Under the pieces are notes generated by a model that saw only the letters and a list, made by a program, of their open reading frames with translations, had not been told where the DNA came from and searched no databases. Shown here piece by piece: positions 2,616-31,496 of a stretch of 64,000 bases of DNA. Each line of letters opens with the position of its first letter. Within the stretch, counting starts at the first letter, position 1. A program made the position numbers and the translations under genes. The DNA is from a virus, in the IMG/VR virus record IMGVR_UViG_3300030521_000002, positions 11,294 through 75,293 of that record; one strand, given 5' to 3'.

Positions 2616-2837
2616 TCACACACGGTAAGGCATCTCCTCTCGCTCCAGAGGAATCCCCAATGCCTTGCCCAAAGCTTCCGCCGTGGAGCTAAGCATTTGG
2701 CCGTGCATGAGACTACCAGTACAAGGACCATTACGCTCGATGATCCATACGTCGCACATAGCCGTCTCAGGATAGCTCCTAATCCTTAGCAAGACGTTGG
2801 CAGGCTTAGGTTGCCTCTTGAGGATCGGCTTAGGCAT
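2616..2837 (-). CDS. Hypothetical protein with MPKPI N-terminus
   Basis: ATG CCT AAG CCG ATC CTC AAG at 2837, overlapping the upstream stop. Confidence 0.6.
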   Translation of the reverse strand: MPKPILKRQPKPANVLLRIRSYPETAMCDVWIIERNGPCTGSLMHGQMLSSTAEALGKALGIPLEREEMPYRV

Positions 2838-3100
2838 CACTTAGCCTCAGTAGGAACGGTGGGGAGAAATACAATAGGGAGTTGTTCGGCAACTGCCCTA
2901 CCGACAGCTTCAATCAATAGGGTAACACTCTTCTTACACTTCCTCTGTTCCTTAAACCCCTCCCCCGAGCAAGCCAGGATTCTGCCATTGACCGCCCTTA
3001 GATGCCATCTCCACTCTCCCTTAGCGTCTTGGAAGACTTCAAAGCGAGGTGTCTTGGGCTTGTTCGCCTTAGCCTTGATTACGGGTTTCTTCTTTGCCAT
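2837..3100 (-). CDS. YegP/DUF1508-family protein
   Basis: RFEVFQDAKGEWRWHLRAVNGRILACSGEGF fits DUF1508; AGGAGCTAG RBS. Confidence 0.8.
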   Translation of the reverse strand: MAKKKPVIKAKANKPKTPRFEVFQDAKGEWRWHLRAVNGRILACSGEGFKEQRKCKKSVTLLIEAVGRAVAEQLPIVFLPTVPTEAK

Positions 3101-3120
3101 TGTCTAGCTCCTTGTAAAAG

Positions 3121-3684
3121 TTACTCGATTACATCGAACTCATTCCCACAACCACATGTAGGAACTCCCGACTCTTCCAACCACTTACGAGAGATTCGTA
3201 AATTACATCCACACTCACAAACTAGTTTAATTGAACTACTGACCAACTTGGTTCTAGCAGTTGGTAATAGCGCTTGGTGCGGATAAGGCCCAAGCTTTCC
3301 TAAGAACTTATCTAAAAGTTCCTTGAGTTTATCGCCAGGGCCAGCATTAGTGGGCTTTCCAACGAGCCCTAATGACCTGCAAGCGCGAATGAACATTCCC
3401 TTATGGCCACATTGCGTACCAACCGCTACGTGGACTAGCTCATGGGCTACCGTTCCAGCAACTTCGATAGGGTTCTCCAATGTAGGGCTAATAAACAATT
3501 CGTAGATACCCGCCTTGCTAGACACATTGGAATGGCACTGTCCGATAACCCTAGCTTTGCGACTCAATGCCCGAATACATGGCCAACCGCAAGTAATCCT
3601 CCAAGGGTCGAGCTTAAACCCCTTGCGAGAATACATGCCTGTTAGTTCTTCGGCTACCTTAGTTAGCCAATCCTCGCGGTTCAT
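3121..3684 (-). CDS. SprT-like zinc metalloprotease
   Basis: IGQC...I.ISP...HELVH...GHKG.F, plus C-terminal CECG...PTCGCG zinc ribbon. Confidence 0.8.
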   Translation of the reverse strand: MNREDWLTKVAEELTGMYSRKGFKLDPWRITCGWPCIRALSRKARVIGQCHSNVSSKAGIYELFISPTLENPIEVAGTVAHELVHVAVGTQCGHKGMFIRACRSLGLVGKPTNAGPGDKLKELLDKFLGKLGPYPHQALLPTARTKLVSSSIKLVCECGCNLRISRKWLEESGVPTCGCGNEFDVIE

Positions 3685-5042
3685 TCCTCAATCTCCGCAT
3701 AGAGCTTGCGTAACCGATTCGTGAGCTTCCAGCGTTGTTGCTTGTTCTTAGCACCATTGGGCAAGGGCAAGTCCTCACGTTCAATCACATGAATCTTACG
3801 CAAGAACCTGACCAGCACTTGGGTACGTTCCATCGGGTAGTGGGTATAGGCTGCTAAAGTCCCGGTATCCAAGCCTAACGTCGAACGGTAGAGGCAACGG
3901 ACCATCTCCATAGTTTGGCCACTCGCTGTATTGATAGCCACCTTCTTCACCCTCCGCATGACTTCCTCATCAATCGTCTTGCGGTTTAATACCACTGCTA
4001 AGCAACATGCCAACCTTACGAATTGGTGGGTAAGTCTCGTGGGCATTTCTTTAGAGCTACGTTCCTCAAACTTCTGGCCGGGCCTAGCTCGTAAGAAAGC
4101 CGTGAACTCGGCTAACGAAGCGCACGTACCCACAATGGCATCCTCATCAATGGTCAGCATTGAAAGTAAGTCCTCGATGTTGCTCTTGAGCCAATCCACG
4201 TAGCCACCCGTGAGTTGGTAAGCCTCTGCTTTCTCAGGAGTCATTTGACTTTCGGGGTGAGCACTCGATTTCTTCATTACCGAGCGTATAGCCGTGTAGC
4301 CCACCCTTCGCAGAATCTCTGCTTGTTCATCGTGACTTGGGGGATCGAAGAAGACTTTTAGGAACCGATCACCCAATTGGCTTTGGTCCGAGGCTAGCAG
4401 AGCGAACGTGCCCGCCATGATCCAAGGGGTGCGCAATCCCATATAGCGGGTATCTTCATCCTTATTTTTGTAGGTAGAACCTGAAACACCATCGAAGATA
4501 CGCCGTTGCTGGCCCATGATCTCGGCGAAGTTAGCTCCCGAAATGAGCGTATCACCTTCCGGGGTAATTAGCGTCTTACGGTTAATCCTTGAGATGAGCG
4601 AGAAATCCTTACCTTCGCCCCCGCCTTTCCATCCACTATGAAATCCGGTGATGTGCTCCAGGGCATGGCAAGACTTGCTAATTAGCATTCCGTCACAGAA
4701 CTGCGTTTTGCCACTTCCGGCATCAGCAATCACCATGAGAAAGAGCTGGTCCCCAACTTGCTCGGTCGAAGCAGCTACCGCTAGCATGATGCTCAACACG
4801 TCGTCCATCTCGCTTCGCCACTTCATCGCCTTACGCCAAGCATTGATTAAATCCCGGTAACTATTGCAAGGAATGGGTTGAAGCCCGGCGGAACCGTTTT
4901 TAAGGGCCTCATCTTCGTCGCTAGTGAGTGCTAGCTCTAGGGGACGTAATTTCCCTAGTATGGACTCCAAGGCCCGCAATCGGCCTCCTAGGCCCCTAGG
5001 ATTAGACGTTGGTAAACTACCTATCTTAACGGGGGTCGGCAA
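3681..5042 (-). CDS. AAA+/MCM-like ATPase, probable replicative helicase
   Basis: Walker A ADAGSGKT, Walker-B-like LITPEGD, Arg-finger-like GDRFL, C-terminal wHTH-like region; near the primase gene. Confidence 0.65.
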   Translation of the reverse strand: MPTPVKIGSLPTSNPRGLGGRLRALESILGKLRPLELALTSDEDEALKNGSAGLQPIPCNSYRDLINAWRKAMKWRSEMDDVLSIMLAVAASTEQVGDQLFLMVIADAGSGKTQFCDGMLISKSCHALEHITGFHSGWKGGGEGKDFSLISRINRKTLITPEGDTLISGANFAEIMGQQRRIFDGVSGSTYKNKDEDTRYMGLRTPWIMAGTFALLASDQSQLGDRFLKVFFDPPSHDEQAEILRRVGYTAIRSVMKKSSAHPESQMTPEKAEAYQLTGGYVDWLKSNIEDLLSMLTIDEDAIVGTCASLAEFTAFLRARPGQKFEERSSKEMPTRLTHQFVRLACCLAVVLNRKTIDEEVMRRVKKVAINTASGQTMEMVRCLYRSTLGLDTGTLAAYTHYPMERTQVLVRFLRKIHVIEREDLPLPNGAKNKQQRWKLTNRLRKLYAEIEE

Positions 5043-5051
5043 TTTAGCCTC

Positions 5052-5264
5052 CTATCGAGAACAGCGAAGGACCACAATCGCTAGTACTGTGTATCCGGTG
5101 GATTTGACTAATTGACAGAGGATTTCTCTCGGAACTTGCTTGTGCTTTAAGAGGTGCTGACCAGCAATAATCGTATGGCAAATAGCACTGACTCCATGAT
5201 AGCCCAAGCTAACTAAGCACGAAGTATGGTTGAGTTTAGAGAGTTTCGTCATTTGCATCCCCAA
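5052..5264 (-). CDS. Hypothetical protein
   Basis: Fills the gap between the J-domain and ATPase genes. Confidence 0.4.
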   Translation of the reverse strand: MGMQMTKLSKLNHTSCLVSLGYHGVSAICHTIIAGQHLLKHKQVPREILCQLVKSTGYTVLAIVVLRCSR

Positions 5265-5911
5265 TCATGGCCCCAGGCCGATTCAAACTTAATCTCGATG
5301 CCTTGCAAGTTTATCTTTCCATAAGTTTTTACCGCCTTCTCGAAATCGAACTCCGAATCGTTCAGTAACACGAGAATCTCTTTGGTGGTATCAAGTAAAC
5401 CCTGAAATCTAGCTAAGGTTTGCTCAATCTCTTGCAGCGGTTGCTCAACCACCTGCTTGAGGATGTTGGGGGCGTTCTTATTCTTCCGCTTGAATCGCTT
5501 AGCTACCCCGAGCAGAATCTTCTTTTTCTTTTCCGTAGCCTTGATCTTCTCTTTCAATCCCCGTTCTTGGCCTTTGGCTTGATCCACCATCATCGCAATC
5601 ATGTTCTCTTGCTCGGGATTCATATTCTTTTCGAGCATGAAGGCGATTGCGCCGTGAACTAATTGGTGGAGCATCTCCCTAAATTGGGATTCCGAGTTAT
5701 CCGGTCGAGCATCCGTGCTACCAGTCTCATCGTATCGCTTCCGCTTAATCGGATCGGCTAGAATTTCAAATGCCAAAAGAATCTCCTTGTATAGCTGCTC
5801 ATCCCCACCCTTATCAGGATGATGTTCCTTGGATTGCTTACGGAGAGCAGCCTTGAGTTGCTCTAGCGTAGCCTCCCGATCGACTTCGAGGATTGTGTAA
5901 AGGTCCATCAT
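5249..5911 (-). CDS. J-domain (DnaJ-like) protein with coiled-coil C-terminus
   Basis: DLYTILEV...HPDKGG...AFEILADP.KR..YD. Confidence 0.9.
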   Translation of the reverse strand: MMDLYTILEVDREATLEQLKAALRKQSKEHHPDKGGDEQLYKEILLAFEILADPIKRKRYDETGSTDARPDNSESQFREMLHQLVHGAIAFMLEKNMNPEQENMIAMMVDQAKGQERGLKEKIKATEKKKKILLGVAKRFKRKNKNAPNILKQVVEQPLQEIEQTLARFQGLLDTTKEILVLLNDSEFDFEKAVKTYGKINLQGIEIKFESAWGHDWGCK

Positions 5912-6285
5912 TAGAATGGGATTAGATGGTTAACTACCAATCGCTTGCCTCTGAATGACAAGTCCAAATCTCGCTTACTATTCTGGATAAAGTCCCTGGC
6001 AATCGCCAAGCTCTTAGTATCCCACTTGGGATCAAGGGGAGCAGGCAACTCTACGATTCTAGCACCCTTGCCCCAACCAACGGCGTAGCTCATGTGAACA
6101 TCCTTACCAAGAGCAAGCAGTAGCTTGAAAGGCTTAAGAGCTTCGATAGTCTTTTGGGTATGTTCTTCATTCCTCAAAGCTACAGCTCTTAGCCCAGAAT
6201 GCCCCACGAGCCAATACAGACGGCGTAGGACAATGGGATCGTTTTGTTTAGTATCGGTATAGAGAGCGATAACGTCAGGCATCAC
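5911..6285 (-). CDS. Hypothetical protein
   Basis: 124 aa, overlapping start/stop codons on both sides. Confidence 0.6.
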   Translation of the reverse strand: MMPDVIALYTDTKQNDPIVLRRLYWLVGHSGLRAVALRNEEHTQKTIEALKPFKLLLALGKDVHMSYAVGWGKGARIVELPAPLDPKWDTKSLAIARDFIQNSKRDLDLSFRGKRLVVNHLIPF

Positions 6286-7211
6286 ACAACACCACTTAAA
6301 CAGTCACGTAGGTCAAATCCCGACGGTAATTCCAGATTGTACGTTTCATCGCCCCAACAGAGTAAGTTAATCTCGCTCGGTGGGGACTCTGACTCTTGCA
6401 ATAGCTTAGCAATCCGCTCCATGCCACTATAACTAGCCGATGGAATAACAGCACCCGTCTTGGGGTGTTTACGGGGATGGTCATTATGGGCCATGAGGTT
6501 GACGATCTTGCCTGAAAATAAGGAACACCAACTAGGGAAGAAGGTGTTGTTGGAGGGTACAGCAATTATATTCCCCTGACTCAATAGGCTAGCTTCGGGG
6601 TTAGCCGTGGAAACCAAGCCCGCATCCCCTTGTTTAGCGGCTCTCAACACTTCCCAATAGGCTATGGCGTCCCAGACCCCCTCTACTAAGTCAACGATAG
6701 GTTTCTTGTTATCCATCAATTGGGGGCCGAGTAACTTATGGCCTAGTGTTGGTGTGGGATGTAGCAGGAACCTATTTTTCTCTTCCACGAAATGGTAGCG
6801 GTACAACTGCTGCAATTTGCCTTCCTCATTGTAGCCCGGCACTAACCAATCATCGGTGGAAATAGACTTAGCTAAACCCCACATCATTAGCCCATCGCCA
6901 TTTAGTAACCGTCGATCGAGGGCTAGCTCATCGTAGCAGTCCCCGGTTGTGGCATCGAAGCTCATCTCCCAGAGCTTACGGATAAAGACATAAATGTTAC
7001 CACCTTGGATTACTTCCCCTGTTTCTTTACCCTCATTGCAAGAGAAGCACCTCCACTGCCCCGTTTCAATGTTGACAGAGAACTTACCATCCTTGCCGCA
7101 AAAAAGGCAGTCAGACACAGCCTCTTTATCGTTGCCTCTCCAATGTAAATCTAACCCATGAAAGCGATATGGCTTCAAATTATCTGGGGTGGCATTGGGT
7201 AACTTCGGCAT
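6282..7211 (-). CDS. DNA primase (Zn finger + TOPRIM)
   Basis: CLFC...WRCFSC zinc finger; LVEGVWDAIA; HND; GFDLRD. Confidence 0.8.
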   Translation of the reverse strand: MPKLPNATPDNLKPYRFHGLDLHWRGNDKEAVSDCLFCGKDGKFSVNIETGQWRCFSCNEGKETGEVIQGGNIYVFIRKLWEMSFDATTGDCYDELALDRRLLNGDGLMMWGLAKSISTDDWLVPGYNEEGKLQQLYRYHFVEEKNRFLLHPTPTLGHKLLGPQLMDNKKPIVDLVEGVWDAIAYWEVLRAAKQGDAGLVSTANPEASLLSQGNIIAVPSNNTFFPSWCSLFSGKIVNLMAHNDHPRKHPKTGAVIPSASYSGMERIAKLLQESESPPSEINLLCWGDETYNLELPSGFDLRDCLSGVV

Positions 7212-10601: not shown

Positions 10602-10626
10602 GCTTTCACGATAAGCAGCAACTATC

Positions 10627-11373
10627 CTACAAAGCCTTCCCTAGACTAATTAGGGAAGGCTTTTTTATTTGTCCGTTCCGTTTGGAGTAAGCCCATTCGA
10701 CTGAAGCTACCGCCGATCGATAACAGGCTTTGTCAATTTCGCACCCGATAAACTTTCGTCCGGTTTCAACACAAGCTACCCCAGTTGAGCAACCGCCCAT
10801 GCACGGGTCGAAAATTAAAGCATCCGGGGGGGTGGTGTTCTCGATGAGATACCTTAGCAGGGCGGTAGGCTTGTGGTTCGGATGAACCTGACTAGGTTGG
10901 TACACCCTTGCATAACTTAGGATATCTCCCTTTCGCTTAGCTAATGGCCTTCCGCTCGCTTTTGCTAAGTACACAATAAATTCGTATTGCGAACCGTAGG
11001 AATTGTAGAGATCTCCACACCCCCAATTTTGCTTATCCCACACCAGAAGATTCTTCACACTGCCATAGACTTTTTTAGCGAGGGGGAGGACTTCTTCGAT
11101 ATTCGTAGGGGAACAAAAACAGTAGATTGAACCTAGCCCTGACAACTTGGATCGAATCGACGTAAGTATGTCCCCCATAAGCACTAAGCTTTCGTCATTG
11201 GCTATTACTTCCGGGGTTTCAGAGGCAACTCGATGGTTCGTTTGGTAACTGATACCGTAGGGAGGGTCGGTAATGACTAGATCGACCGAGTGCCGTTCCA
11301 ATTGGGGAATGTACTTTCGGCAATCCCCAAAAACGAGGGTACAATCCCCAATTTTCTTAATAATAGGGGGCAT
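10627..11373 (-). CDS. DNA N6-adenine/N4-cytosine methyltransferase (beta class)
   Basis: GDC, TDPPY, HPNHKP, DPCMGGCST, FIGCEID. Confidence 0.9.
   Translation of the reverse strand: MPPIIKKIGDCTLVFGDCRKYIPQLERHSVDLVITDPPYGISYQTNHRVASETPEVIANDESLVLMGDILTSIRSKLSGLGSIYCFCSPTNIEEVLPLAKKVYGSVKNLLVWDKQNWGCGDLYNSYGSQYEFIVYLAKASGRPLAKRKGDILSYARVYQPSQVHPNHKPTALLRYLIENTTPPDALIFDPCMGGCSTGVACVETGRKFIGCEIDKACYRSAVASVEWAYSKRNGQIKKPSLISLGKAL
10631..10669 (+). terminator. Intrinsic terminator at convergent genes
   Basis: AAAGCCTTCCCTA-GACTAAT-TAGGGAAGGCTTTTTT. Confidence 0.8.
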
Positions 11374-12569
11374 TAGCTTTCCTCTTCTTGGGAACTCTTG
11401 TGTCTACGGTCCCCTCGGTCGATTCCGCCTAATACCGGGAATTCTTCAAGATGCTTAAACTCCCCGTCGAACCGATACCGCAGGGAGACTCCCTTTTCGG
11501 TCAGTTCCTTCTTTGCAACGAATTGCGCCCAAGCCTTGATAATCAGGGCCACCTTCTCGGGGTTGCTACTCGCCTCATTCCGCATCTCCACGAGCTTGGT
11601 ATGGAGCAAAAGCAAGTCTTTATGGTTACTAGCTAGCTTCTCCCAAAAGTCACAAGCTTGGTCCCATTGTTCCCAATCAATTACCGATTCGTTGGGGGGT
11701 GTCAGTTCCTTATATTCGTCCTGATTGGAGGTAGCGGCCCCCATGAGGTAAAGCAACCCACAAGCGATACCGGAAGGCATGAGCGTGGTTATCTTCCGGT
11801 GCTTACCCCCATCTTCCTCATAAACGAACTTAGCGGCCTCTAAGATGCGTTCGTGACGCTCGATGAAGTCCAAAGACTCACTATGGGTCCGAAGCCCGCT
11901 ATAGGGATTTAGGAACGCTCCCGTGCGTTGCCAAAGGAACTTCACGGCATACTCAAGAATCTTGCTTACCCGTTCCCGTTGGGCATTATTAAGCCCACCC
12001 TCGCGGAAGTACCCACCACGGTAAATCACATCCGCTAACGATCGAGGTTCCCCGGTGTCGATCGTATTGACTACCTCATCTTGCTCATCGCACCCGAAAG
12101 CGATCAAACAGGCTAAAGTTGGCTCTGTCTTCCAAAATTTCTTCCACTTCGCTTGGTGTTGTTCCCATTCTTGGACGGCCAAGATCAGGCCGATTAAACG
12201 GTGCTGACAACTAATGAGCAACCCGGTCTTGCCTACGATCATGGATTCGAGGTTCAACCGCCACTTACCACATAAGACTTCCTGGCGAATAAGGGAAGCG
12301 TTCGTGGGCTTGTAGGGACGGTTCCCCATATTATTTAGGCAACGAACCTTGGTTCCGTAACCGTCTAACAGGGTGAATTCTGCGCCAAACTTACAATCAT
12401 CGGTTTCGGGTTCCCATCCTAGCAGTAGCTTAGCTTCATCTGCCGTTAGAAAGGGATCACGTTCACCGTTACAAAGCTTGATCGAAACTTCCGGGTAGAT
12501 AATCTCCCTACCATTATTAGCTTTTGGTTTTCTTGTCTGAATAGGTTTCTTTTTTAGTAGTGGGGGCAT
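11373..12569 (-). CDS. ParB/DGQHR-like protein, paralog A
   Basis: NRP...W.LN.E..I....SCQHRL...TIDTGEPR.LADV; strongly similar to 25382-26677. Confidence 0.6.
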   Translation of the reverse strand: MPPLLKKKPIQTRKPKANNGREIIYPEVSIKLCNGERDPFLTADEAKLLLGWEPETDDCKFGAEFTLLDGYGTKVRCLNNMGNRPYKPTNASLIRQEVLCGKWRLNLESMIVGKTGLLISCQHRLIGLILAVQEWEQHQAKWKKFWKTEPTLACLIAFGCDEQDEVVNTIDTGEPRSLADVIYRGGYFREGGLNNAQRERVSKILEYAVKFLWQRTGAFLNPYSGLRTHSESLDFIERHERILEAAKFVYEEDGGKHRKITTLMPSGIACGLLYLMGAATSNQDEYKELTPPNESVIDWEQWDQACDFWEKLASNHKDLLLLHTKLVEMRNEASSNPEKVALIIKAWAQFVAKKELTEKGVSLRYRFDGEFKHLEEFPVLGGIDRGDRRHKSSQEEES

Positions 12570-15257: not shown

Positions 15258-15376
15258 TTACCACTTCCACGACAGGGAATACACGTTCTACCACGACTCG
15301 ATTTGCCAGTTCCCGAACATGCCACGCAGTCTCCCGAGCGGCGCAATGGCTTGAGCTTCTTGATAGGCTTAGGCAT
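15242..15376 (-). CDS. 44-aa DnaJ-type zinc-finger mini-protein
   Basis: Hand translation MPKPIKKLKPLRRSGDCVACSGTGKSSRGRTCIPCRGSGKCRNQ; two CxxCxGxG repeats. Confidence 0.75.
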   Translation of the reverse strand: MPKPIKKLKPLRRSGDCVACSGTGKSSRGRTCIPCRGSGKCRNQ

Positions 15377-18849: not shown

Positions 18850-19984
18850 CTTGTAGCTCTGGGAAAAGATTGGTGACTCGTTGAAGGCCAAGTGTACTAC
18901 CGGTTTCTAAATGCTCGTCTAATTCTGTTGCACCGCCATCTAGTAAGGCAGAATAGCAACCAAAGGGCATGATGAAATGTTGGTGATTGTTTTCCATCCA
19001 AGGGTCTTGGAAGTTCTGTGAGGCTAGGTACTCATACCAATCACAGAGTTGTTCCAAGATCGGATTTAAGCACCTCTGCTTGAATTTAGCAACATCCCCA
19101 GCCGTGAGGTTTATTTTCCACCTCATAAAAAACCAGTTATCTCGCTTCTCTTTGATGGAGGCTTTGCATTCTTCTCTGATAATCCCATCCAAGCGACCAT
19201 AGAATTCTTCGTCTGTCTCCTCTGGCTTCTTAGCAGTGGCTTGGTGCTTACGGATAGTAAACTTACCACCGCTCAAGGGGCGACGAACAGCATTGAATCT
19301 AACCCCACAAATCGGAACACCATCGCTCTCCTTACTCAATGGCCCGTTCTCTCTAGTATACTCTTCCAACGCCACGGTATAGATGAGCGTTTGCAATTCA
19401 AAGTGTAGCTGACGTTGTATCTGCTGCTTATCAATATCGCCTTTTGACTTATTTTCCTGTAAAAATATCCCAACATTCTTACCCTTGCCAATCAGGTCTA
19501 CGCTGTCCCACTTACCTCTCAAATAGACAGTCCGCCCCGACGGTAATTTATAAGGAACTTTGAAGACCTTCTCTTGGAAGATTGGTGTTCGATCCTTAAC
19601 ATCCGGGTGCTTAGACCAAAAGTCCATGTAATGTGGGAACTGGGTACGACAGATGTTGTACCAATGGTTAATTTGATCTGCTGCTAATTTGTACTGATCG
19701 AACAACCCTTGGCAGTAAATCTTTAATCTACCTTGCCACTTGTTACTTGCCCTAGCCCCAACGGCAACTTCCTCAGCATGGCTCTCTTCACAAATATGCC
19801 ACATTTGCCCGTAAAAAATTCTGTGGTTCCAGCCATCGGCTTGCTTAAGGCCCTCAATAGTCTGTATTCTGAATCTTTCCCTGCAAACTAAAAATTTTGA
19901 GAGCAAGCTGAACGTAATGCCATCAACTTCTGGGCCTTGCCACACTGGTCTTTTAGCCGCATTTCTTATGACTGGTTTCGGCAT
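18842..19984 (-). CDS. PD-(D/E)xK exonuclease
   Basis: TFS.L..F..C, G...H, E..F, LRGKWD, QENKSK, Q...Y. Confidence 0.8.
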   Translation of the reverse strand: MPKPVIRNAAKRPVWQGPEVDGITFSLLSKFLVCRERFRIQTIEGLKQADGWNHRIFYGQMWHICEESHAEEVAVGARASNKWQGRLKIYCQGLFDQYKLAADQINHWYNICRTQFPHYMDFWSKHPDVKDRTPIFQEKVFKVPYKLPSGRTVYLRGKWDSVDLIGKGKNVGIFLQENKSKGDIDKQQIQRQLHFELQTLIYTVALEEYTRENGPLSKESDGVPICGVRFNAVRRPLSGGKFTIRKHQATAKKPEETDEEFYGRLDGIIREECKASIKEKRDNWFFMRWKINLTAGDVAKFKQRCLNPILEQLCDWYEYLASQNFQDPWMENNHQHFIMPFGCYSALLDGGATELDEHLETGSTLGLQRVTNLFPELQDA

Positions 19985-20699
19985 TTTGTCTCCTCCTTTT
20001 CCATGATTCTTTCCTTGCTTCCGCTATCTTCGCTTTACATCCAGGTGTATTTAGTGCCTTTTTGATGGCTGCCTTATGGGAGTCAGACAATCTTTTGTCT
20101 TCTCTTGCATCCCATTGCGCCTTGACTATCAGGGATATTTTCTTTTTAGTTTCTTCGCTACGCTTTCTGCCCTTATTTTTCATCGAGATACTTTTACACA
20201 CAGCCAAAGACCGTTTCTTACCGACGGAAGCTTTTGGACCCATCCTCAACGCTTCTAATTGCTTTTCGGTTAGATTGCCTTTTCTCTGTTTAGACCAAAG
20301 CAATTTGGTTTCTTCTGTGGGCCTATACCAAGCTCTCCCTTTCTTCGATTTAGCAATATGTTCCTCAGATAGTTTTACTCCTAAACAACTACCAGCGGTT
20401 GGGCATTTATTATAGCCAGTATCTTGTTCAGCGGCTCTTAGTTTATCCATCCAAACCTGTTCTCTTGGAACACACATTTTCTTTTGGCAAGTTTCCAAAA
20501 CAATAAATTCAAAGGCTTCTTCACCATACTTTAACCAAGCCCTCTGCAAGTGTTTATTGTGATGTAAATCCCTCCTTAACAGACATTTGTGTATGTACCA
20601 CCTCTTTTTGATAGAAACAGCAGCACTTCCTACATAGACTTTGAGCGAGATTTTATGCCGTATTGCATACACTCCTGTCTTGTAAATAGGTTTGGGCAT
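19953..20699 (-). mobile_element. Free-standing GIY-YIG homing endonuclease with NUMOD3-like repeats
   Basis: GVYAI...VYVGS...RW..H...H.N.HLQRAW.KYG...E...GYN; repeated SEE/SEET.K. Confidence 0.9.
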
Positions 20700-20914: not shown

Positions 20915-21004
20915 TCACTTATTGAGTTTGTGGCTGATAACAAACAATAGCCCAATAACCATTCCCAGTGCTAAGATCACTATACTTCCCTGTTCATACG
21001 TCAT
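20915..21004 (-). CDS. 29-aa single-TM peptide
   Basis: Hand translation MTYEQGSIVILALGMVIGLLFVISHKLNK; ATGA overlap with the UDG stop. Confidence 0.5.
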   Translation of the reverse strand: MTYEQGSIVILALGMVIGLLFVISHKLNK

Positions 21005-21705
21005 AGTTCACCAAAGGCTTCGGCTAGGGTTATGATACAACGCTTTATGGCGAGAGATTGCTGGATTTGTTCGCTGCGAAGTATGGCTGCCGGGTGCAGA
21101 ATTGTGATGATCTTAGGATAGAGCTGCGAAACTTTAGCAACAGGATTGCCGCGTTGTACAGCTTTAGATTTAGGGCTTGCTTCCTTGCTAAGTCCAGTTC
21201 TTGCAGTTTGAGATTCTGGGCTTGGGTGATGAGACGCATATTTGGGTTCCTGAAGAATCTTGGGGAGCCATTTGTAGGCTAGCTCTCCGACACACACAAT
21301 CAACTTAGGTTTCGTCAAAGCTACCAATTCTACCACACGAGGAGCGCAAGCTTCTATCGAGGCTTTGGGAGGTTGTGCAGCCTTTTCTCCTTGCTGCATT
21401 GGCAGACATGCAATCAAATTGCTATATGCAAAGGTTGGTTCCCCCTCATTAGCAGCAACTGCTCGTTCGATAATCTTGTGCAGCAAGCGTCCGGCAGGCC
21501 CCACAAAAGGCTGTCCAATAACATCCTCACTTTGTCCAGGTGCTTCGCCCAACATAAGTACAGAAGCCGGGATAACACCCTTGAGCAGCACCACGTGATT
21601 ACGCCCCTTACACAAATCACACCGCTGACAATCTCGCCATTTTATTTTGTGCATGTCCCAAGGTGAGAACAATTTAGCAAGCTTATTGGAAATTGGTTTA
21701 GGCAT
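21001..21705 (-). CDS. udg: Uracil-DNA glycosylase, family 4
   Basis: CQRCDL, GEAPG..ED..G.PFVGPAG, HPAAILR; start MPKPIS at 21705 with AGGAG. Confidence 0.9.
   Translation of the reverse strand: MPKPISNKLAKLFSPWDMHKIKWRDCQRCDLCKGRNHVVLLKGVIPASVLMLGEAPGQSEDVIGQPFVGPAGRLLHKIIERAVAANEGEPTFAYSNLIACLPMQQGEKAAQPPKASIEACAPRVVELVALTKPKLIVCVGELAYKWLPKILQEPKYASHHPSPESQTARTGLSKEASPKSKAVQRGNPVAKVSQLYPKIITILHPAAILRSEQIQQSLAIKRCIITLAEAFGEL
21045..21239 (-). CDS. Candidate nested gene in the +1 frame of UDG
   Basis: MRLITQAQNLKLQELDLARKQALNLKLYNAAILLLKFR; AGGA 8 nt upstream; coincides with a UDG insert. Confidence 0.45.
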   Translation of the reverse strand: MRLITQAQNLKLQELDLARKQALNLKLYNAAILLLKFRSSILRSSQFCTRQPYFAANKSSNLSP

Positions 21706-21916: not shown

Positions 21917-22144
21917 TTATTGCTTAGTTGTTCGCCACAGGATTAAAGCACATCGCTTGAACATCCCATCGGCTAGAGAGTCGATTAACATTTCCGCCTG
22001 CTTATCCTCTAGCAAAGCTCGCATCAACGTACGATGTTTTTCAGTGGTAGATTCCAACCAATCTGTAGCAAGTTTAACCAGAGCATAAACTCGGTCAAAT
22101 GCTGCTAAATCTTGGTCAAACTTCGATAGGTCAGGTAAGTCCAT
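21917..22144 (-). CDS. Hypothetical protein
   Basis: 75 aa, TAATG coupling. Confidence 0.6.
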   Translation of the reverse strand: MDLPDLSKFDQDLAAFDRVYALVKLATDWLESTTEKHRTLMRALLEDKQAEMLIDSLADGMFKRCALILWRTTKQ

Positions 22145-22665
22145 TATCCTAATTTCCCTTCATGTAAACGCTGGCAATAAAGGGCAATCAACATTGCATC
22201 ACAGACCGCTCGTTGTTTACCGAGAGTCTCTTTCCAGATTTCCTCTCGGGGGAATAACTGTTGGGCTTTTGCTCGCAGTCGGTCCTTCCACTTGTTAGTA
22301 GCCTCACCTGCCTTGCGATTACTGATCCCCATTGCTTGTTGCCATTTGTAGGCTTGAACTGTCTCGAAGGGGATTTGAGCGGCAGTTAAAGCTGTTCTTA
22401 GGGCCATATAACTACCGTAGAGTTTAGACATAGGAGATTTTCCAATTCCTTTAATAGCTGGATGAATCCACTCAATAACTGCTGTAACATTAGAGTCTTT
22501 CAATCCACTTATAAGAAACCAAATCCCAAGCTCTGTCTCAGGCATTGAGGCCCGTAAATCAAACATTCCACTGGGATAAATTGCTGCAATACCCCCATTG
22601 GCGCCTGGATCAATGCCTAGATACAAGCGGTCTTTAGTGATTGGTTTTGGCAAAACGGTATCCAT
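22144..22665 (-). CDS. RuvC-like Holliday junction resolvase
   Basis: YLGIDPGANGGIA, AVIE, V...WQ, A.QLFP, DAMLIA. Confidence 0.85.
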   Translation of the reverse strand: MDTVLPKPITKDRLYLGIDPGANGGIAAIYPSGMFDLRASMPETELGIWFLISGLKDSNVTAVIEWIHPAIKGIGKSPMSKLYGSYMALRTALTAAQIPFETVQAYKWQQAMGISNRKAGEATNKWKDRLRAKAQQLFPREEIWKETLGKQRAVCDAMLIALYCQRLHEGKLG

Positions 22666-23093: not shown

Positions 23094-23312
23094 TCAGTTC
23101 CTTTTCCCCAAATTAGTAATTCCTACATGATCCCCAACAATACCTACTGAGACTCTAACACTAGCCCGCTTGGCAGCTTGTCTGACCTGTATGGCAAAGG
23201 AATGGGGCTCACAAAAGAAGTGTATATCCCTGCGAAATTCTTGGGTGTCTCCCTTCTTCCCTAACCAAGATTCCCAGGGATACTTGGCCCGTCTCCCGCG
23301 CTTAACCGGCAT
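23094..23312 (-). CDS. Small basic DNA-binding-like protein
   Basis: GRRAKYPW motif. Confidence 0.55.
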   Translation of the reverse strand: MPVKRGRRAKYPWESWLGKKGDTQEFRRDIHFFCEPHSFAIQVRQAAKRASVRVSVGIVGDHVGITNLGKRN

Positions 23313-25273: not shown

Positions 25274-25566
25274 GGACTGCTTGGAAGCGAAACCTCAAGG
25301 AGTTCCAACTCTTAACCAAGTTGGATCGACCGGAATACTTTGGATACCGTCAACTTCAATTGCATAAGGAGCTAACCCAGAATGCCGAAACTATTAACGA
25401 AACCGACAACACCCAAGAAGGACAAGCAGCAGAAACCGTTGACCCCTACGTCCAAGAGTACGTCGCCCGAGAAGAGCGAAGAAAGAAACGGTTCAGCGGA
25501 GGCAAAGCCGGTCAAGAAATTAGCGAGTTCCAAGGAACCGAGAAAGATTCTGTACCCCGCAATTGA
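25267..25566 (+). CDS. Hypothetical protein overlapping the next gene by 185 nt
   Basis: AAAGGAG before GTG. Confidence 0.45.
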   Translation: MVRTAWKRNLKEFQLLTKLDRPEYFGYRQLQLHKELTQNAETINETDNTQEGQAAETVDPYVQEYVAREERRKKRFSGGKAGQEISEFQGTEKDSVPRN

Positions 25567-26677
25567 ACTTAAGATTTGTACCCCGAGTAGTCCACTCACG
25601 GTAGCCGATGCTAAAAAACTACTCGAATGGCGGGAAGAGACGGAGCATGTCAAATTCGACGGAAAGGAATATGGCAGTGCTTTCCATACGAGGGGCAACG
25701 AAGAGACACGTAGGCGGGTTTGGTGTGCCAACAACCAGACGAATCGACCGATCGTGTGGCCAATGGTGGAAATGCTTTGGCAAGAGATTCTCCGGGGGAA
25801 TTACCAACTCAACGGAGAAACCATCATCATTGGCAAGACAGGGTTTGTCCTTAGCGGGCAGAACCGTTTGATTGCCTTAGTTCTAGCTGCCGAGATGTGG
25901 GCGGCTAAACCGGGACAATACAAAGAGGTTTGGAAGACCGAACCCACGATTACCGGGCTCGTGGTTGTGGGTATCGACGAAACCGATAAGGTGGTTAACA
26001 CCATTGATACGGGCAAACCTCGCGATATGGCAGACGTTTTCTACCGTAGCGAGTTCTTCGCCAAGTTCCACCCCAAGCAGCGCAAACCCCTGGCTAAGTT
26101 GGCCAAGTTTGCCCTGAAGATGCTTTGGCATCGTACGGGGGCCGATAAAGCGAATGCTTTTGCACCCCGGCAAACCCATGCTGAGAGCATCGACTTCGTG
26201 AAACGTCACCCCAAGCTCTTGGAAGCGGTTAAGCACATCTATGAAGAAAATGGGACCGATGGCAAGATCAATCAGTTTCTTTCTCCGGGGTATGCCGCCG
26301 CTCTGATGTACCTCCAAGCCGCTTGCCTTACCGAACGGGAGCGAGAAACCAAGGATGGCTATGGTGAGGTCGATACCCCTTCCGAGAAACTCCTCGATAT
26401 GACCATGTGGGATAAATCCAGTGAATTCTGGGTAATGCTCGCCGGTCGTTCCAAGGAATTCGAGGCTGTGACCCAAGCCGTCGCCCAAGTTCGGGACTAT
26501 GACCACGGCCTAGGTGGCTCGATCGACGAACGTACCACGATCCTCATCAATACGTGGAACGTCTGGACAAGCAACAAGAAGGTGACGTTGGCAGGGATTA
26601 TGCCCAAGTACCATGACGGTGACGATGGCAAAACCCTGGTAGAAGTTCCTCACCTCGGTGGAATCGACGTGCGTTAG
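25382..26677 (+). CDS. ParB/DGQHR-like protein, paralog B
   Basis: NRP...LNGETIIIGKTG..LSGQNRL...TIDTGKPR..ADV. Confidence 0.65.
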   Translation: MPKLLTKPTTPKKDKQQKPLTPTSKSTSPEKSEERNGSAEAKPVKKLASSKEPRKILYPAIELKICTPSSPLTVADAKKLLEWREETEHVKFDGKEYGSAFHTRGNEETRRRVWCANNQTNRPIVWPMVEMLWQEILRGNYQLNGETIIIGKTGFVLSGQNRLIALVLAAEMWAAKPGQYKEVWKTEPTITGLVVVGIDETDKVVNTIDTGKPRDMADVFYRSEFFAKFHPKQRKPLAKLAKFALKMLWHRTGADKANAFAPRQTHAESIDFVKRHPKLLEAVKHIYEENGTDGKINQFLSPGYAAALMYLQAACLTERERETKDGYGEVDTPSEKLLDMTMWDKSSEFWVMLAGRSKEFEAVTQAVAQVRDYDHGLGGSIDERTTILINTWNVWTSNKKVTLAGIMPKYHDGDDGKTLVEVPHLGGIDVR

Positions 26678-26709: not shown

Positions 26710-27342
26710 GTGATGCAAGTGAAAAATACCCCAATTAAGTCGCTTGTTAAGGCTGGTTACAACCCGCCAAAGCGGAGTAAAGCTGGTGGGAGCCTTACGC
26801 AGTTGGAGAAATCCATTGAAAAGATCGGCTTGGTTTATCCAATAGCCGTTACCAAAGAAATGGAAGTTATTGATGGGCATCGAAGAATAGCTGCCTGTCA
26901 AAAGCTAGGTTGGGATACTATCCCCGTGATCGTCGTAAGCGTTGAATCCCGCGAACTGGCTTATGCCGAAGTAAACGCCAATAATCTCAAGTTGTCTGGT
27001 AACGATAACCTAACCGTGTATCTACAAAACCCCGACGCGGTTACTAAGAAAGCAGATCGGCGGTTTGAATCCGTCGAAGAGATAATTGGCAAAGTCTTAC
27101 TCAAGCAGATTTGCAGTCGTGGGTTTTCTTTATCCACCGTGGGTATCGCAAGGCGAGCTTGCATCTACGTTGGTAAAGGAACGGACGATAAGTCGTTCCT
27201 AAAGCGAACTATCGCTTGGCTGATTCGCTACCGCAACCAACACTTGATTCGTGGATACATGGTTTTTCAATCACCGCCGCAAGTTCTTTATCGGGCGATT
27301 ATGAAGAACAAGGACATTCGGGTTAAGTACACAACCCAGTGA
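26710..27342 (+). CDS. ParB/Srx N-terminal domain protein
   Basis: YNP...L..SI...G...PI.V....IDGHRRIAA...LG. Confidence 0.85.
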   Translation: MMQVKNTPIKSLVKAGYNPPKRSKAGGSLTQLEKSIEKIGLVYPIAVTKEMEVIDGHRRIAACQKLGWDTIPVIVVSVESRELAYAEVNANNLKLSGNDNLTVYLQNPDAVTKKADRRFESVEEIIGKVLLKQICSRGFSLSTVGIARRACIYVGKGTDDKSFLKRTIAWLIRYRNQHLIRGYMVFQSPPQVLYRAIMKNKDIRVKYTTQ

Positions 27343-27353
27343 TCGAAGTAACT

Positions 27354-27394: not shown

Positions 27395-27502
27395 ATGTAC
27401 CCACCCGAACGTAGGGTAGCTTATAAGGGCCGGATTGGGTATAATTGTTTACTGTGAGGCGCAAGCCGGAAGATCAATTACCCTAATGAGCAGGAAGTCA
27501 GT

Positions 27503-27697: not shown

Positions 27698-27885
27698 AAC
27701 CCACCGAGCTAGCCACCTACCTTGCCCTCAGTCACCAACAAGTCAGAGCCTTGTTGCGCAAGGGCAAGATCAAGTCTACCAAGAAGCAGACATTCACCCG
27801 CGAAGGACGGGAGTTTGGATTTGAGTACGAGATTACCCCCGACGAAGCCCAACGTATCCAACAGGAGAGAACCAATGCCAAGTAA
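27694..27885 (+). CDS. Excisionase/MerR-type HTH protein
   Basis: TELATYLALSHQQVRALLRKGKI. Confidence 0.75.
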   Translation: MKPTELATYLALSHQQVRALLRKGKIKSTKKQTFTREGREFGFEYEITPDEAQRIQQERTNAK

Positions 27886-29017
27886 GAAGACCAAAGCGAT
27901 TCCCCCGTCCAAGTTGGCCGACAAACTAGCCAAGCACAAGTCAGAGTTGGATGATGCCCCCCACCTGATCGTCCAAGCGCTCGCAGGAACCGGAAAAAGT
28001 ACCACAATTATCGAGGGCATCAAACTACTGTTTGATATGCCCCCCTCGATCATACCGAGCCCACAACAGCAAGAAATTTGGGATTCGATCCTCTTGAGCA
28101 AGGGGAAAGCTAAGTCTGTGTGCTTTTGCGCCTTCAACAAGAGCATTGCAACAGAACTTCAGCAACGTGTTCCTCCCGGTTGTATCGCCCAGACCATGCA
28201 CTCGATGGGATTCAAGGCGGTTCAAGCGGCCTTTGGTAAGGTCCAAGTCAATCAGTACCGAGTACAAGACATTATCAGCGAACTACTCGGCAAGGATATT
28301 CGGGATTTGCGCAAAGACAAGTTCACGATGATTAAAGCTGTGGAAGAATTGGTAGGGTTGTGCAAGCAGACTTTGACAGGCTTTGAGCGACCTAAAACCG
28401 GAATCGAGCGATTGGATTATGCCAATTACAACTGTCAAATCGTATGGCCGGAAACTCTTGCTAACTTGGCAGATTACTACGACGTGGATTGCAACGGTTC
28501 TAGTGCTGAAATCTTCGACCTAGTTCCCCAGGTCTTGGAACGCTGCAAGGACGTTGCCAAGGATCGTTGTATCGACTTTGCTGATATGGTGTGGCTCCCG
28601 GTTGTTCTTAATCTTTCGGTGCAACAATACGACTTACTACTGGTGGATGAGGTTCAGGATTTAGCTAAAGTACAACAACAACTCGCTCTCAAGGCCGGTA
28701 AACGCTTGATACTTGTAGGCGACAGTCGGCAAGCTATTTATGGTTGGGTTGGCGCTGACTCTGGCAGTATGGAGCGAATGTACGATATTTTGTTAGACTA
28801 CTGTCGTGCTTGTGATGGGGCTGGAACTATTCTTGGGGCAGTTTGTGAGCAATGTGCCGGTAAAGGAAGTGAAGGGAGGGGTTGTCGAGTTCTACCCTTG
28901 ACTGTCACTCGCCGTTGTGGGAGAGCCATTGTTGAGGAAGCTAAGAAGATTGTTCCGAATTTTGAATGGCATCCGAATAACGGGGAAGGAAAAGTCAGCT
29001 ATGCACGGATGAACTAA
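27875..29017 (+). CDS. UvrD/Rep-like SF1 helicase, N-terminal fragment
   Basis: ALAGTGKST, AFNKSIA, TMHS, IDFADM, VDEVQD, VGDSRQAIYGW.GAD, L..TRRC. Confidence 0.9.
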   Translation: MPSKKTKAIPPSKLADKLAKHKSELDDAPHLIVQALAGTGKSTTIIEGIKLLFDMPPSIIPSPQQQEIWDSILLSKGKAKSVCFCAFNKSIATELQQRVPPGCIAQTMHSMGFKAVQAAFGKVQVNQYRVQDIISELLGKDIRDLRKDKFTMIKAVEELVGLCKQTLTGFERPKTGIERLDYANYNCQIVWPETLANLADYYDVDCNGSSAEIFDLVPQVLERCKDVAKDRCIDFADMVWLPVVLNLSVQQYDLLLVDEVQDLAKVQQQLALKAGKRLILVGDSRQAIYGWVGADSGSMERMYDILLDYCRACDGAGTILGAVCEQCAGKGSEGRGCRVLPLTVTRRCGRAIVEEAKKIVPNFEWHPNNGEGKVSYARMN

Positions 29018-29025
29018 CAAGATAC

Positions 29026-29120
29026 AATTAGATGTAAGGCTAGACCGGCCAGTCGAAGAGTCAGCACCACACTGACCTGCCTTATATCTAATTTTGTGGG
29101 GTTACTGGTGGAGTAACTTC
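29026..29120 (+). promoter_or_regulatory. Structured leader of the GIY-YIG gene (three-way junction plus RBS hairpin)
   Basis: 15-bp helix 29026-29040/29079-29093 with two internal hairpins; GGGGTTACT-GGTGG-AGTAACTTC over the RBS. Confidence 0.6.
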
Positions 29121-29121
29121 T

Positions 29122-30079
29122 ATGCCTTCTCCCAAGGGTTGGAAATCTGGCGTTTATTGTATTCTTAATACGATTAACGGAAAAAGATACATTGGCAGTG
29201 CTGCTAGGTGTTTCAAAGGGCGATTAGCGGATCATAAGCTTAGGCTTAAAAGTAAAACACATGCTAATCGGTACCTACAAAACGCTTGGAATAAGTACGG
29301 CGAGAAGGCATTTCAATTTATGGTTATTACCGGATGTTGTCCCAGCCTTTGCATAGAGATTGAGCAGCAATACATAGACTTGTACAACTCATCCAACTCT
29401 AAGTTTGGCTACAACATCTGCCCAAGAGCCGGCAGTAGATTGGGCACCAAATTATCACCAGAGGTTTGTGCCAAATTTTCCATAATCTCCAAGGAGAAAA
29501 TGAACCGCCCAGAAGTCAGAGCTAAATTATCCGCTGGGACAATAAGGGGCGATGAAGAACCCAGAACTTAGAGCTATTCTCTCAACAAAGGCCAAGAAAA
29601 GATTCCAAGACCCGGAAGCTAGAAGGAAGGCATCTAGAAAAGCAAAAGAAGTTCAGAACAAACCCGAAGTAAGGGCTAAACGGCTAGCAACTTTGAGTTT
29701 ACCTGAATACCAAGAAAAAGTTTCTAGGCTCCAAAAAGATTCTTGGAAAAACAAGTCAACGAGAGATAAAAGAATAGCGGGAATGAAGAAAGCTGTTTTA
29801 GCACCAGGATTCAAAACGAAACTTTCTATTGCATTGAAACAAGGCTGGAGAAAATGTCTTATTAGACAAGGGATTATTTTGAAGAGCCGAATCGGAGAAA
29901 GGGAGTTTACTGTTAGTGAGGTGGTAGAAGTCATGCAATACCAAAGTAGGTTTGGAGCCAGAACTCTTATTTGGAAGTTGGTCAGTTTGGGATTAGCAAC
30001 ATGCTTAGTGCAGCCCGTAACCAAGCATGTTGTTGGAATTTTCGGGTGGAATGAGGAAAACGAACTATGGAAAATTTAG
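29122..30079 (+). mobile_element. GIY-YIG homing endonuclease, frameshifted at about 29546-29549
   Basis: GVYCI...YIGSA...GYN; PE.R.K repeats continue across ORFs 29122-29571 and 29552-30079; deleting one G fuses them. Confidence 0.8.
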
Positions 30080-30636: not shown

Positions 30637-30639
30637 ACA

Positions 30640-30948
30640 ATGCCCAAGCCAATCTCCAAGAAGAAACCAACTCCACCCCCGATCAGCAAGCCCCAGGAAC
30701 CTAGCCCTTACTCCAACTTGCTCCTAGCCTATGGTGATAAACCACCATTTACTCCACGCAAGGGCAAGGGCGATGTGGTTGTGGACATTAAACGTAAGTT
30801 GCAGGAGTATGTCTTCATCCTCGATAACGGAGATACCTTCACTGCTCCTACGTTGGTCAAGATTCCGGGGGATCGGATCGAAGCCAATGGGCGAGCTTAT
30901 GCTGATGGCCGTGGTCAGAAGTTACGTGACAAACTTAACATGGAGTAA
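30640..30948 (+). CDS. Hypothetical protein with MPKPI N-terminus
   Basis: MPKPISKKKPTPPPISKP. Confidence 0.65.
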   Translation: MPKPISKKKPTPPPISKPQEPSPYSNLLLAYGDKPPFTPRKGKGDVVVDIKRKLQEYVFILDNGDTFTAPTLVKIPGDRIEANGRAYADGRGQKLRDKLNME

Positions 30949-30951
30949 ACG

Positions 30952-31137
30952 ATGATGATGCAAACGATCGCTAATTGGGATACGGAGTTTTCCAAACGTA
31001 TCGTTGCCAGATGCCGTTCGGGAGATGCCGAAGCAGACCATTCACGTGCCGATGGGATTTTGGTTGATTTTCTCAATCTGATTGGGATGGAGAAAACAGC
31101 CAAGGCATTTGAAGAAACCGAGAGGCAATACGATTAG
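30952..31137 (+). CDS. Hypothetical protein
   Basis: GD.E..H..AD..L motif; GGAG RBS. Confidence 0.6.
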   Translation: MMMQTIANWDTEFSKRIVARCRSGDAEADHSRADGILVDFLNLIGMEKTAKAFEETERQYD

Positions 31138-31280
31138 CGTTAATCTAGGTAGTTTGGGAAGCACCCCATACAACCGCCTAGGATCGCCGTGGCCGCGTTG
31201 TAAGCCCTAACGTCTAGAATCACGTACCGATAATCCAAACGCATTACCGTGCAAGTGGGTGCCCTTAAATCGAGGATTCT

Positions 31281-31496
31281 ATGCCCAAGCCCATCCTATT
31301 CCGTCACGAAGGCCCGCTAATCGTCTTTAGGGATATTTGGGCAGGGCGAATTGCCTACCGAGACCCTCCCGTGCATGGGGAGCAACTTGTAGAGATAGAG
31401 AGCTACGCCGAAGCCAGAACCCACGCTGCTCAGCTAGGCTACAAAGGAATCAGTGTTGTGTTTGAAACCCTAACCCAAGGAGTGAGCGATGTATAA
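31281..31496 (+). CDS. Hypothetical protein with MPKPI N-terminus
   Basis: GAGGA RBS; MPKPILFRH. Confidence 0.65.
   Translation: MPKPILFRHEGPLIVFRDIWAGRIAYRDPPVHGEQLVEIESYAEARTHAAQLGYKGISVVFETLTQGVSDV

Follow-up and report, generated by a model that had tools for sequence, protein, structure and literature searches.

Why should a DNA polymerase, a uracil-DNA glycosylase (UDG), a resolvase, a nuclease and a number of small proteins encoded by one phage all begin with the same few amino acids? This question is raised by a 64,000-nt stretch of DNA (the window), which corresponds to bases 11294-75293 of the 75,293-bp virus record IMGVR_UViG_3300030521_000002 and in which many unrelated genes start with Met-Pro-Lys-Pro followed by Ile or Val (the strict tag) or with a looser Met-Pro (MP) variant. 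Our analysis indicates that MPKPI is the form taken in this phage by a motif found across its clade, M-P-[K/R]-hydrophobic plus further charged residues, and that selection acts on the peptide. We favour the reading, to which we assign a probability of roughly 45%, that one common partner reads the tag, a short N-terminal peptide for docking or recognition.

The occurrence of the tag was assessed both in the nucleotide sequence and in the predicted proteome of the window. The pattern ATGCCNAARCCNRTH (ATG-CCN-AAR-CCN-RTH) was matched eight times, compared to 0.05 matches expected from 100 dinucleotide-preserving shuffles, and a ninth strict copy begins with TTG at position 22653. All strict copies were located at gene starts, and PKP[IV] occurred nine times in the predicted proteome, each time directly behind the start codon. 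These are the nine starts listed in the original prediction. Its claim that the tag is concentrated in a DNA-metabolism block was also borne out: Pro followed the first ATG in 17 of the 47 genes of the 2.6-31.5 kb block, compared to five of 64 genes elsewhere and 6.8% of internal Met residues.

Gene functions in the window were assigned from Pfam and PHROGs (methyltransferase, family A DNA polymerase (PolA), AAA_24 ATPase, nuclease, two GIY-YIG endonucleases, UDG, resolvase, helicase, and primase). On the minus strand, the strict tag opens a 73-aa protein with no Pfam or PHROG match (2616-2837, MPKPILKRQPKP), PolA (12591-15257, MPKPISKKLTPKLL), a 44-aa CxxCxGxG zinc mini-protein (15242-15376, MPKPIKKLKPLRR), a PD-(D/E)XK nuclease (18842-19984, MPKPVIRNAAKRPVW), a GIY-YIG endonuclease in which MPKPIYKT stands immediately ahead of the GIY motif (19953-20699), UDG (21001-21705, MPKPISNKL) and, from the TTG start, a RuvC-like resolvase (22144-22653, (M)PKPITKDR, phrog_1770). 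On the plus strand, it opens a 102-aa protein with a Pro/Lys-rich tail (30640-30948, MPKPISKKKPTPPPISKP) and a 71-aa protein (31281-31496, MPKPILFRH). Orthologues of the mini-protein start with MPKIPERK, MPKIPKRKK or MPKPPKPK, and those of the resolvase with MPKKKPSLT or MPRTKSNNF, at equal spacing to GIDPG.

Ten loose M-P starts were present in the same block. On the minus strand, they belong to the helicase/ATPase half of a split primase-helicase (3681-5042, TTG start with a strong Shine-Dalgarno (SD) site, (M)PTPVKIG), the primase half (6282-7211, MPKLPNAT, phrog_239/47), an N6_N4 DNA methyltransferase (10627-11373, MPPIIKKI, PF01555, E 3e-26), a phrog_5931 protein (11373-12569, MPPLLKKKPI), a Sak4-like AAA_24 ATPase (17929-18849, MPKVIKQT) and a 72-aa protein (23094-23312, MPVKRGRR, MPVKRGRRAKYPW). 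On the plus strand, they belong to a second phrog_5931 protein (25382-26677, MPKLLTKP, MPKLLTKPTTPKK), the N-terminal part of a UvrD-like helicase (27875-29017, MPSKKTK at the ATG at 27875, MPSKKTKAIPPSK) and a second GIY-YIG endonuclease (29122-29571, MPSPKGWK, MPSPKGWKSGVY). The tenth, MPDVIAL, lies at 6282. The starts at 6282, 23312 and 29122 are additions to the variants listed earlier, all of which were real, including MPEPIV at 59966. The label of a ParB-like pair did not hold for the two phrog_5931 proteins: this family has no assigned function, and the true ParB-like N-terminal domain of the phage, at 26710-27342, is untagged.

A few features of these genes deserve mention in their own right. 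The mini-protein upstream of PolA has a DnaJ-type CxxCxGxG zinc motif and is kept and always MP-tagged in relatives. A weak match to the same DnaJ-type motif (PF00684, E 0.003) was found in the N-terminal part of the helicase at 28796-28867 (plus strand; residues 359-382 of the frame beginning at 27722). The primase-helicase is a single gene of 720-780 aa in relatives and is split here, each half having its own MP start, with a J-domain protein (5249-5911, PF00226) and other small genes in between. A Parvulin (Pin1-like) isomerase in the ATPase half (single-sequence PDB match, E 0.017) was rejected, as the match was lost when a family profile was used.

Next, we examined whether the tag is kept as a peptide or as a nucleotide sequence. 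The codon diversity noted originally was real, with the Pro, Lys and Ile codons of the tags equal to the general codon usage of the genome. The tags of PolA (MPKPISKKL) and UDG (MPKPISNKL) are identical at eight of nine residues and encode Ser by AGC and TCC, respectively, two codons with no synonymous path between them. Among pairs of strict tags, the same codon was used at identical residues with a frequency of 0.37 (0.39 expected under independence); among non-homologous tagged genes of relatives, the frequency was 0.39 (0.37 expected). Upstream of the tags, only an ordinary ribosome-binding site (RBS) was found in common (consensus AAGGAGCTA), and the SD sites of MP starts were equal to or better than those of other starts, which ruled out compensation for weak SD sites; DNA copying or gene conversion between gene starts was ruled out by the codon analysis. 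Thus, given the variety of codons, the likeness upstream being confined to the RBS and the good SD sites, the tag is very unlikely to stem from mis-called starts, from an RNA operator, or from a DNA repeat or recent gene conversion, and the claim of selection on the peptide stands, with codon sharing at chance level both here and in relatives. As a separate observation, an extended RBS consensus, (A/T)AGGAGCTA(G/A), was seen upstream of approximately 13 starts (e.g., 12569, 25382, 39983, 44715, 53493, 58631, and 59966). GAGCTA occurred 13 times within 25 nt upstream of starts (1.3 expected), and the CTA part of the extended RBS has no complementarity to the usual 16S 3' end.

To place the tag in an evolutionary context, we collected relatives of the phage. 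No INPHARED genome matched its PolA at more than 30% identity, and hence it has no close cultured relative; no tRNA genes were found. Few relatives were found via PolA, and more via the PD-(D/E)XK nuclease, which has 1737 homologues in a large protein collection, many on 60-100-kb contigs, and is encoded by at least 110 IMG/VR loci. The phage is a member of a large uncultivated clade of 60-100-kb phages. An alignment of the nuclease family led to 80 IMG/VR loci, and start statistics were calculated for 1816 genes in 79 related loci, with 56 unrelated IMG/VR loci serving as the comparison set. Gene starts were called by a simple longest open reading frame, first-ATG rule, so that some starts are wrong; such errors add noise to the MP fractions and to the estimate of lability given below, and should mostly dilute the signals. 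Contigs of the clade are present in metagenome-assembled genomes labelled as Candidatus Saccharibacteria, 'archaeon' and Candidatus Pacearchaeota (L169, CAZWFX010000034.1; L170, JANQNF010000005.1; protein P0020). This placement probably reflects co-binning of small-particle fractions rather than pointing to the host, but the clade may have a host from the Candidate Phyla Radiation or DPANN.

The exact tag appears only in this phage, whereas a more general form of it is shared by the clade. A scan of IMG/VR for MPKPI..KK (ATGCCNAARCCNATHNNNAARAAR) yielded 56 single matches, approximately the chance level, and no contig with several matches; the exact tag is therefore private to this phage. MP starts made up 17.6% of the genes in the related loci and 5.2% in the unrelated loci. 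For MP[KR] starts, the values were 7.2% and 1.1%, and across comparisons these starts were 6-15 times commoner in relatives. The refutation proposed in the original prediction did not come about. In the pooled profile of MP genes, position 3 was K in 34% and R in 12%, position 4 was I, V or L in 49%, and K or R occurred at positions 6 and 7 in about one third, giving the clade consensus M-P-[K/R]-[I/V/L]-x-K/R-K/R. The combination of K/R at position 3 and I/L/V at position 4 was found in 26% of genes with Pro at position 2 (Pro2), in 2% of those with Ala2, and in at most 11% after any other residue. Since the pair is tied to Pro2, M-P-[KR]-hydrophobic is one coherent motif and not a generic basic start.

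Within the clade, the motif takes forms that are specific to individual genomes, which we refer to as dialects. MPKIP(E/K)RK is used in four related loci (L001, L060, L061, and L098), MPKLPxK in L122, MPKPV in L123 and MPKID in L147. G002 has MPVSNR, MPVANR and MPISSK, with nine MP genes in succession, and G001 has an acidic dialect, MPRLID(D/E)E. With this phage left out, the identity at positions 3-7 between non-homologous MP genes was 0.765 within genomes and 0.493 between genomes (permutation p < 0.001). In the same comparison, the effect was absent at positions 8-12 and for non-MP genes. This genome-specific likeness, which comes without codon sharing, indicates that a genome- or host-specific factor selects a particular N-terminus of 4-7 residues. 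A literature search for MPKP starts in phages returned nothing relevant. The N-terminal extensions of Atribacter intracytoplasmic-membrane proteins were considered as a parallel and rejected, as these are 10-73 aa long and have no shared motif (PMC7736352).

The link between the tag and DNA-metabolism proteins held across relatives. In six complete genomes, five of which have terminal repeats or are at least 90% complete, MP starts were found in 57 of 243 genes of the replication/recombination module and in 34 of 367 genes elsewhere (odds ratio 3.0, p = 2.5e-6). The MP fraction varied considerably by family: primase-helicase (0.80), methyltransferase (0.80), Sak4-like AAA_24 ATPase (0.65), resolvase (0.45), phrog_5931 (0.42), nuclease (0.38), a 378-aa core protein described below (0.37), UDG (0.20), PolA (0.18), and helicase (0.16). 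Other families of the same module had no MP starts at all (0 of 39 5-hydroxymethyldeoxyuridine (5-hmdU) DNA kinases, 0 of 25 CsrA proteins, and 0 of 11 copies of a helix-turn-helix protein). Comparison of orthologues indicates that the tag is an add-on to its client proteins. Most PolA orthologues begin 2-4 residues ahead of the DTE motif of the exonuclease (xxS(L/V)DTET), to which about 11 residues have been added here, and a basic tail, 5-45 residues long, precedes the conserved WKGPE core in every one of the 120 nuclease orthologues inspected. When the presence or absence of genes was compared with tag richness, no family tracked positively, and the 5-hmdU DNA kinase was weakly negative.

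This kinase (PF18723, E 1e-45) is encoded by 39 related loci (L148:16988-17878 and 38 others), and a thymidylate-synthase-like protein also occurs in relatives (L096:19452-20651). Together, the predicted functions point to thymidine hypermodification in part of the clade. Gene clustering found neither gene in this phage. The fraction of MP starts was 0.136 in kinase-bearing loci and 0.21 in the others (uncorrected p = 0.002).

If the tag has a reader, a candidate is an acidic 378-aa protein (16386-17522, minus strand), although the assignment is tentative and we consider it rather unlikely to be correct. This protein belongs to the core of the clade, being encoded by 62 of about 75 clustered genomes, and its gene is located two genes from the Sak4-like ATPase with the gene for CsrA in between. 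It had no match in sequence searches of Pfam, PHROG or the PDB, and its fold was predicted by AlphaFold (AF2) with a confidence (pLDDT) of 84-87. Residues 36-208 are beta-rich in the model, and their best VIA matches are OB folds, though weak ones (ligase OB domains and RPA, Z 3.4-4.1). Residues 231-283 form a helix-extended-helix like that of Rho N-terminal, LEM and SAP domains (Z 4.8, root-mean-square deviation (rmsd) 1.5 Å over 42 residues), and residues 284-314 a predicted disordered acidic linker. The C-terminus (residues 309-378) is a predicted five-stranded, Tudor/SH3-like small beta-barrel. It matched SGF29 (3me9; VIA Z 8.8, rmsd 3.5 over 67) and SMN (4qq6; VIA Z 8.6, rmsd 1.6 Å over 56 residues), where a Z of about 8 counts as middling, reached a Foldseek probability of 1.0 to several Tudor domains, and superposed on TDRD3 too. 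This barrel fold is also common to KOW and PWWP nucleic-acid binders. Four aromatic positions, judged by eye, seem to be kept in the C-terminal sequences, which is at most suggestive of peptide binding.

The charge of this protein covaries with that of the tags. The family is strongly acidic (median net charge -29), and across 50 genomes the mean charge of the tags (residues 3-9) was anticorrelated with the charge of the 378-aa protein (rho -0.44, p = 0.0012; rho -0.43 after excluding the three genomes with acidic tags). The anticorrelation was the strongest among nine core families and the only one that survived correction for 18 tests, and the charge of the protein was correlated neither with non-MP N-termini (rho -0.02) nor with the overall charge of the proteins of the locus (rho -0.04). 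Such a pattern would be expected of a hub and docking peptides with complementary charges. Sak4 genes are associated with genes for single-stranded DNA-binding proteins (SSBs), and the 378-aa protein is, as modelled, probably the SSB-type partner of the Sak4-like recombinase.

The CsrA homologue that lies between the Sak4-like ATPase and the 378-aa protein (17554-17919, minus strand) matches PF02599 over residues 1-51 (E 3.6e-21) and is extended at its C-terminus by about 70 aa. At least 25 related loci have kept a 63-aa version (MLVLSR...). A search of the open-access literature found no description of phage-borne CsrA.

Taken as a docking handle, the tag would work as follows. The motif would have been added repeatedly and independently to proteins working on DNA. 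In proteins that start with Met-Pro, processing normally leaves Pro at the N-terminus, and the exposed peptide would be bound by a partner that gathers the tagged enzymes at replicating or recombining DNA, or controls them as a group. The 378-aa protein could act as an SSB-type hub of this kind, because it combines a weak OB-like domain and an acidic linker with a C-terminal Tudor/SH3-like barrel. We infer a partner because of the dialects, the list of clients, the tie between Pro2 and the K/R-hydrophobic pair, the add-on nature of the tag and the covariation in charge, which together favour a partner-read peptide. The system has features by which docking motifs are recognised: one short peptide is found on several non-homologous proteins, selection is at the peptide level and the clients belong to one machinery. 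A more elaborate version, which we regard as doubtful, is that the clade has a private interaction code, in which a processed N-terminus of 4-7 residues docks enzymes of replication, repair and recombination, and even resident homing endonucleases, onto the phage's acidic hub. Tag and hub would co-evolve, and therefore each phage lineage would have its own dialect; such dialects may insulate the replisome from co-infecting relatives and host proteins.

Among the functions suggested in the original prediction, docking to a hub fits best: it accords with the dialects, with the set of tagged proteins and with the complementary charge of one acidic core protein. Sorting to a replication compartment or nucleoid fares worse. 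A sorting signal, like those for phage nucleus import or the targeting peptides of BMCs and encapsulins, would be needed on every protein that has to enter and would hence be kept on essential clients. About 82% of relatives have an untagged PolA, the tag is highly labile on trees and is nearly lacking in the complete relative G004, and no shell or nucleus-type gene was seen. With essential clients such as PolA usually without the tag and one complete relative nearly tagless, sorting is unsupported.

Several observations weigh against a partner-read peptide. Judging by its near-random scatter on trees, the tag is very often gained and lost: the MP state changed 19 times on the nuclease tree (22.5 with shuffled labels) and 19 times on the AAA_24 tree (20.3 with shuffled labels). 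The frequency of MP starts per genome is continuous, from 0 to 45%, and G004, although almost tagless, keeps the 378-aa protein. With PolA tagged in only about 18% of relatives, no client strictly needs the tag. As for the candidate reader, it starts with MP itself in 37% of members, the best match to its OB-like region is weak (residues 36-208 vs PrgE, 8s4s; Z 5.5, rmsd 4.1 over 105 residues), and the charge correlation ignores kinship among genomes, with only three usable phylogenetic pairs. Finally, the tag resembles a K|N-I|Y early-elongation motif (PMC6920384), a resemblance that favours a different explanation.

That explanation, the main rival and one that the original prediction did not consider, is a co-translational expression or N-terminal-maturation motif, which we regard as somewhat unlikely. 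The first five residues or so would be chosen for efficient early elongation and/or quick deformylation and Met trimming on the host ribosome. Where few templates are available ahead of replication, the genes that have to be translated would converge, phage by phage, on the optimum of the host. The tag begins right at the start codon and spans no more than 4-7 residues, and the clade consensus M-P-K-(I/V/L)-x-K-K parallels the enrichment of highly expressed E. coli proteins for A2, K3, I4 and K5 (Tats 2006, PMC1397820). Set against that signature (PMC1397820, Table 4) and that of PMC6920384, the tag likewise has a small residue at position 2, K/R at 3 and I/V at 4, kept at the amino-acid level. 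Because the K|N-I|Y motif at codons 3-5 raises yield regardless of the synonymous codon (Verma 2019, PMC6920384), selection at the peptide level is expected here as well. The high lability and the continuous range of MP frequencies suit a soft, quantitative selection, and selfish GIY-YIG genes are tagged too. However, late structural genes, presumably the most highly expressed, were not enriched (9% MP in the six genomes), and the K/R-hydrophobic pair is tied to Pro2 and absent after Ala2, though Ala is the usual residue of high expression. The C at the fourth coding position is contrary to the A enrichment at this position in 99% of bacterial genomes (PMC5850271). A conserved ribosome does not readily account for dialects of up to seven residues, one of them acidic (MPRLIDDE). 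The SD sites of MP genes are not weaker, and the specific anticorrelation in charge with one protein is left unexplained.

Two further alternatives were considered. In the first, which we consider improbable, the Pro/Lys-rich tail would itself contact DNA without specificity, or slide on it, and need no protein reader; comparable arms are that of the lambda repressor, SPKK or AT-hook-type tails, and the adenovirus pVIc sled. The enrichment of the tag on enzymes acting on DNA, the K/R at positions 3, 6 and 7 and the variable-length basic tails of all 120 inspected nuclease orthologues agree with such an arm, but non-specific electrostatics predicts neither an exact pentapeptide in nine copies nor genome dialects, some of which are acidic (MPRLIDDE and MPKID), and leaves the invariant Met-Pro unexplained. 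In the second, to which we give little credence, the tag is a conditional N-degron or stability signal: processing of Met-Pro would expose an N-terminus that a host or phage protease uses to time turnover, with loss of Met or Met-Pro leaving Pro or Lys/Arg as the new N-terminus. The extreme N-terminal position and the order of an invariant M-P, K/R and a hydrophobic residue resemble N-terminus-anchored recognition. Lambda O is a substrate of ClpXP via its N-terminus, and N-terminal Lys and Arg are secondary destabilising residues in E. coli. However, no protease or adaptor was tied to the tag in clade genomes, and dialects without K/R at position 3 occur (MPVSNR). Last, a cause at the DNA or RNA level (a nucleotide repeat, gene conversion, an operator for an RNA-binding repressor such as the phage's CsrA homologue, by-products of stop-codon overlaps, or mis-called starts) is very improbable and already largely refuted by the codon analyses: ATGCC is invariant as nucleotides and a TAA lies within the CCT-AAR used by three of the nine tags, but wobble positions vary as codon usage predicts, with the same-codon rate at random expectation and two different Ser codons (AGC and TCC) in use, upstream likeness is limited to a normal RBS with SD sites as good or better, the tags lack GGA (the CsrA core motif), and orthologues begin at the same place.

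Returning to the partner-read peptide, we compared it with known systems in which short terminal peptides organise proteins. The C-terminal tip of E. coli SSB has an interactome of its own, and the acidic tail of T7 gp2.5 binds the T7 polymerase and gp4. SSB-tip systems and those with clamp-binding or PIP-box motifs similarly tie many unrelated DNA-metabolism enzymes to one hub via a short terminal peptide, and the clients in common include a polymerase, UDG, an exonuclease, a helicase, a primase and a recombination mediator. The likeness extends to charge complementarity, the candidate hub being acidic, with a weak OB-like domain, and located two genes from the Sak4-like ATPase. In contrast to these systems, the peptide here is on the clients, N-terminal and Pro/Lys-rich, and the candidate hub would bear a folded Tudor/SH3-like reader rather than an acidic tip. 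PIP boxes and SSB tips are also conserved, whereas the motif described here diverges into genome dialects, and the tags (M-P-[KR]-[ILV/P]...) bear no resemblance to the consensus sequences QL[SD]LF and Qxx[LIM]xx[FY][FY] or to the acidic D-D-D-I-P-F tip.

N-terminus-anchored readers, namely the SGF29 tandem Tudor on H3 A1-R2-T3-K4me3, BIR domains on AVPI, ClpS and GID4, are comparable in that a motif of 4-5 residues with a basic residue is read at a free N-terminus after Met removal by a small beta-barrel or pocket. They differ in belonging to eukaryotic chromatin, apoptosis or degron systems, and no methylation machinery is evident here. The candidate reader resembles Tudor readers only in its fold, at 7-20% identity, and nucleic acids are also among the ligands of small barrels. 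The T4 capsid-targeting sequence offers another parallel: in both cases, a terminal peptide recurs on unrelated proteins of a single phage, is maintained at the protein level and is also seen in relatives. However, the tag described here is much shorter, is found on replication and recombination enzymes and not on head cargo, and changes its dialect between genomes, with no sign of a cleavage site or a link to head assembly. The signature of highly expressed genes, or translational ramp (PMC1397820, PMC6920384), shares with the tag a small residue, K/R, I/V and K at positions 2-5 and selection at the amino-acid level, but the residue at position 2 is Pro here and not Ala, the K-hydrophobic pair goes with that Pro, enrichment in late genes is lacking, and the dialects are genome-specific and in some cases acidic.

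The tag is apparently an undescribed N-terminal handle on phage replication proteins. If the docking code is true, it would be a virus-encoded, fast-diverging short linear motif system that organises the replisome of a bacterial virus, with a reader-client polarity opposite to that of SSB tips, and it would provide a sequence rule to predict which small phage proteins act at the replication fork. Should the tag prove to be an expression motif, selection on the first five codons at the amino-acid level would have an unusually clear example in nature, and host-specific leader peptides would become available for protein expression. Under either reading, the dialects are a reproducible pattern in a widespread, so far uncharacterised phage clade.

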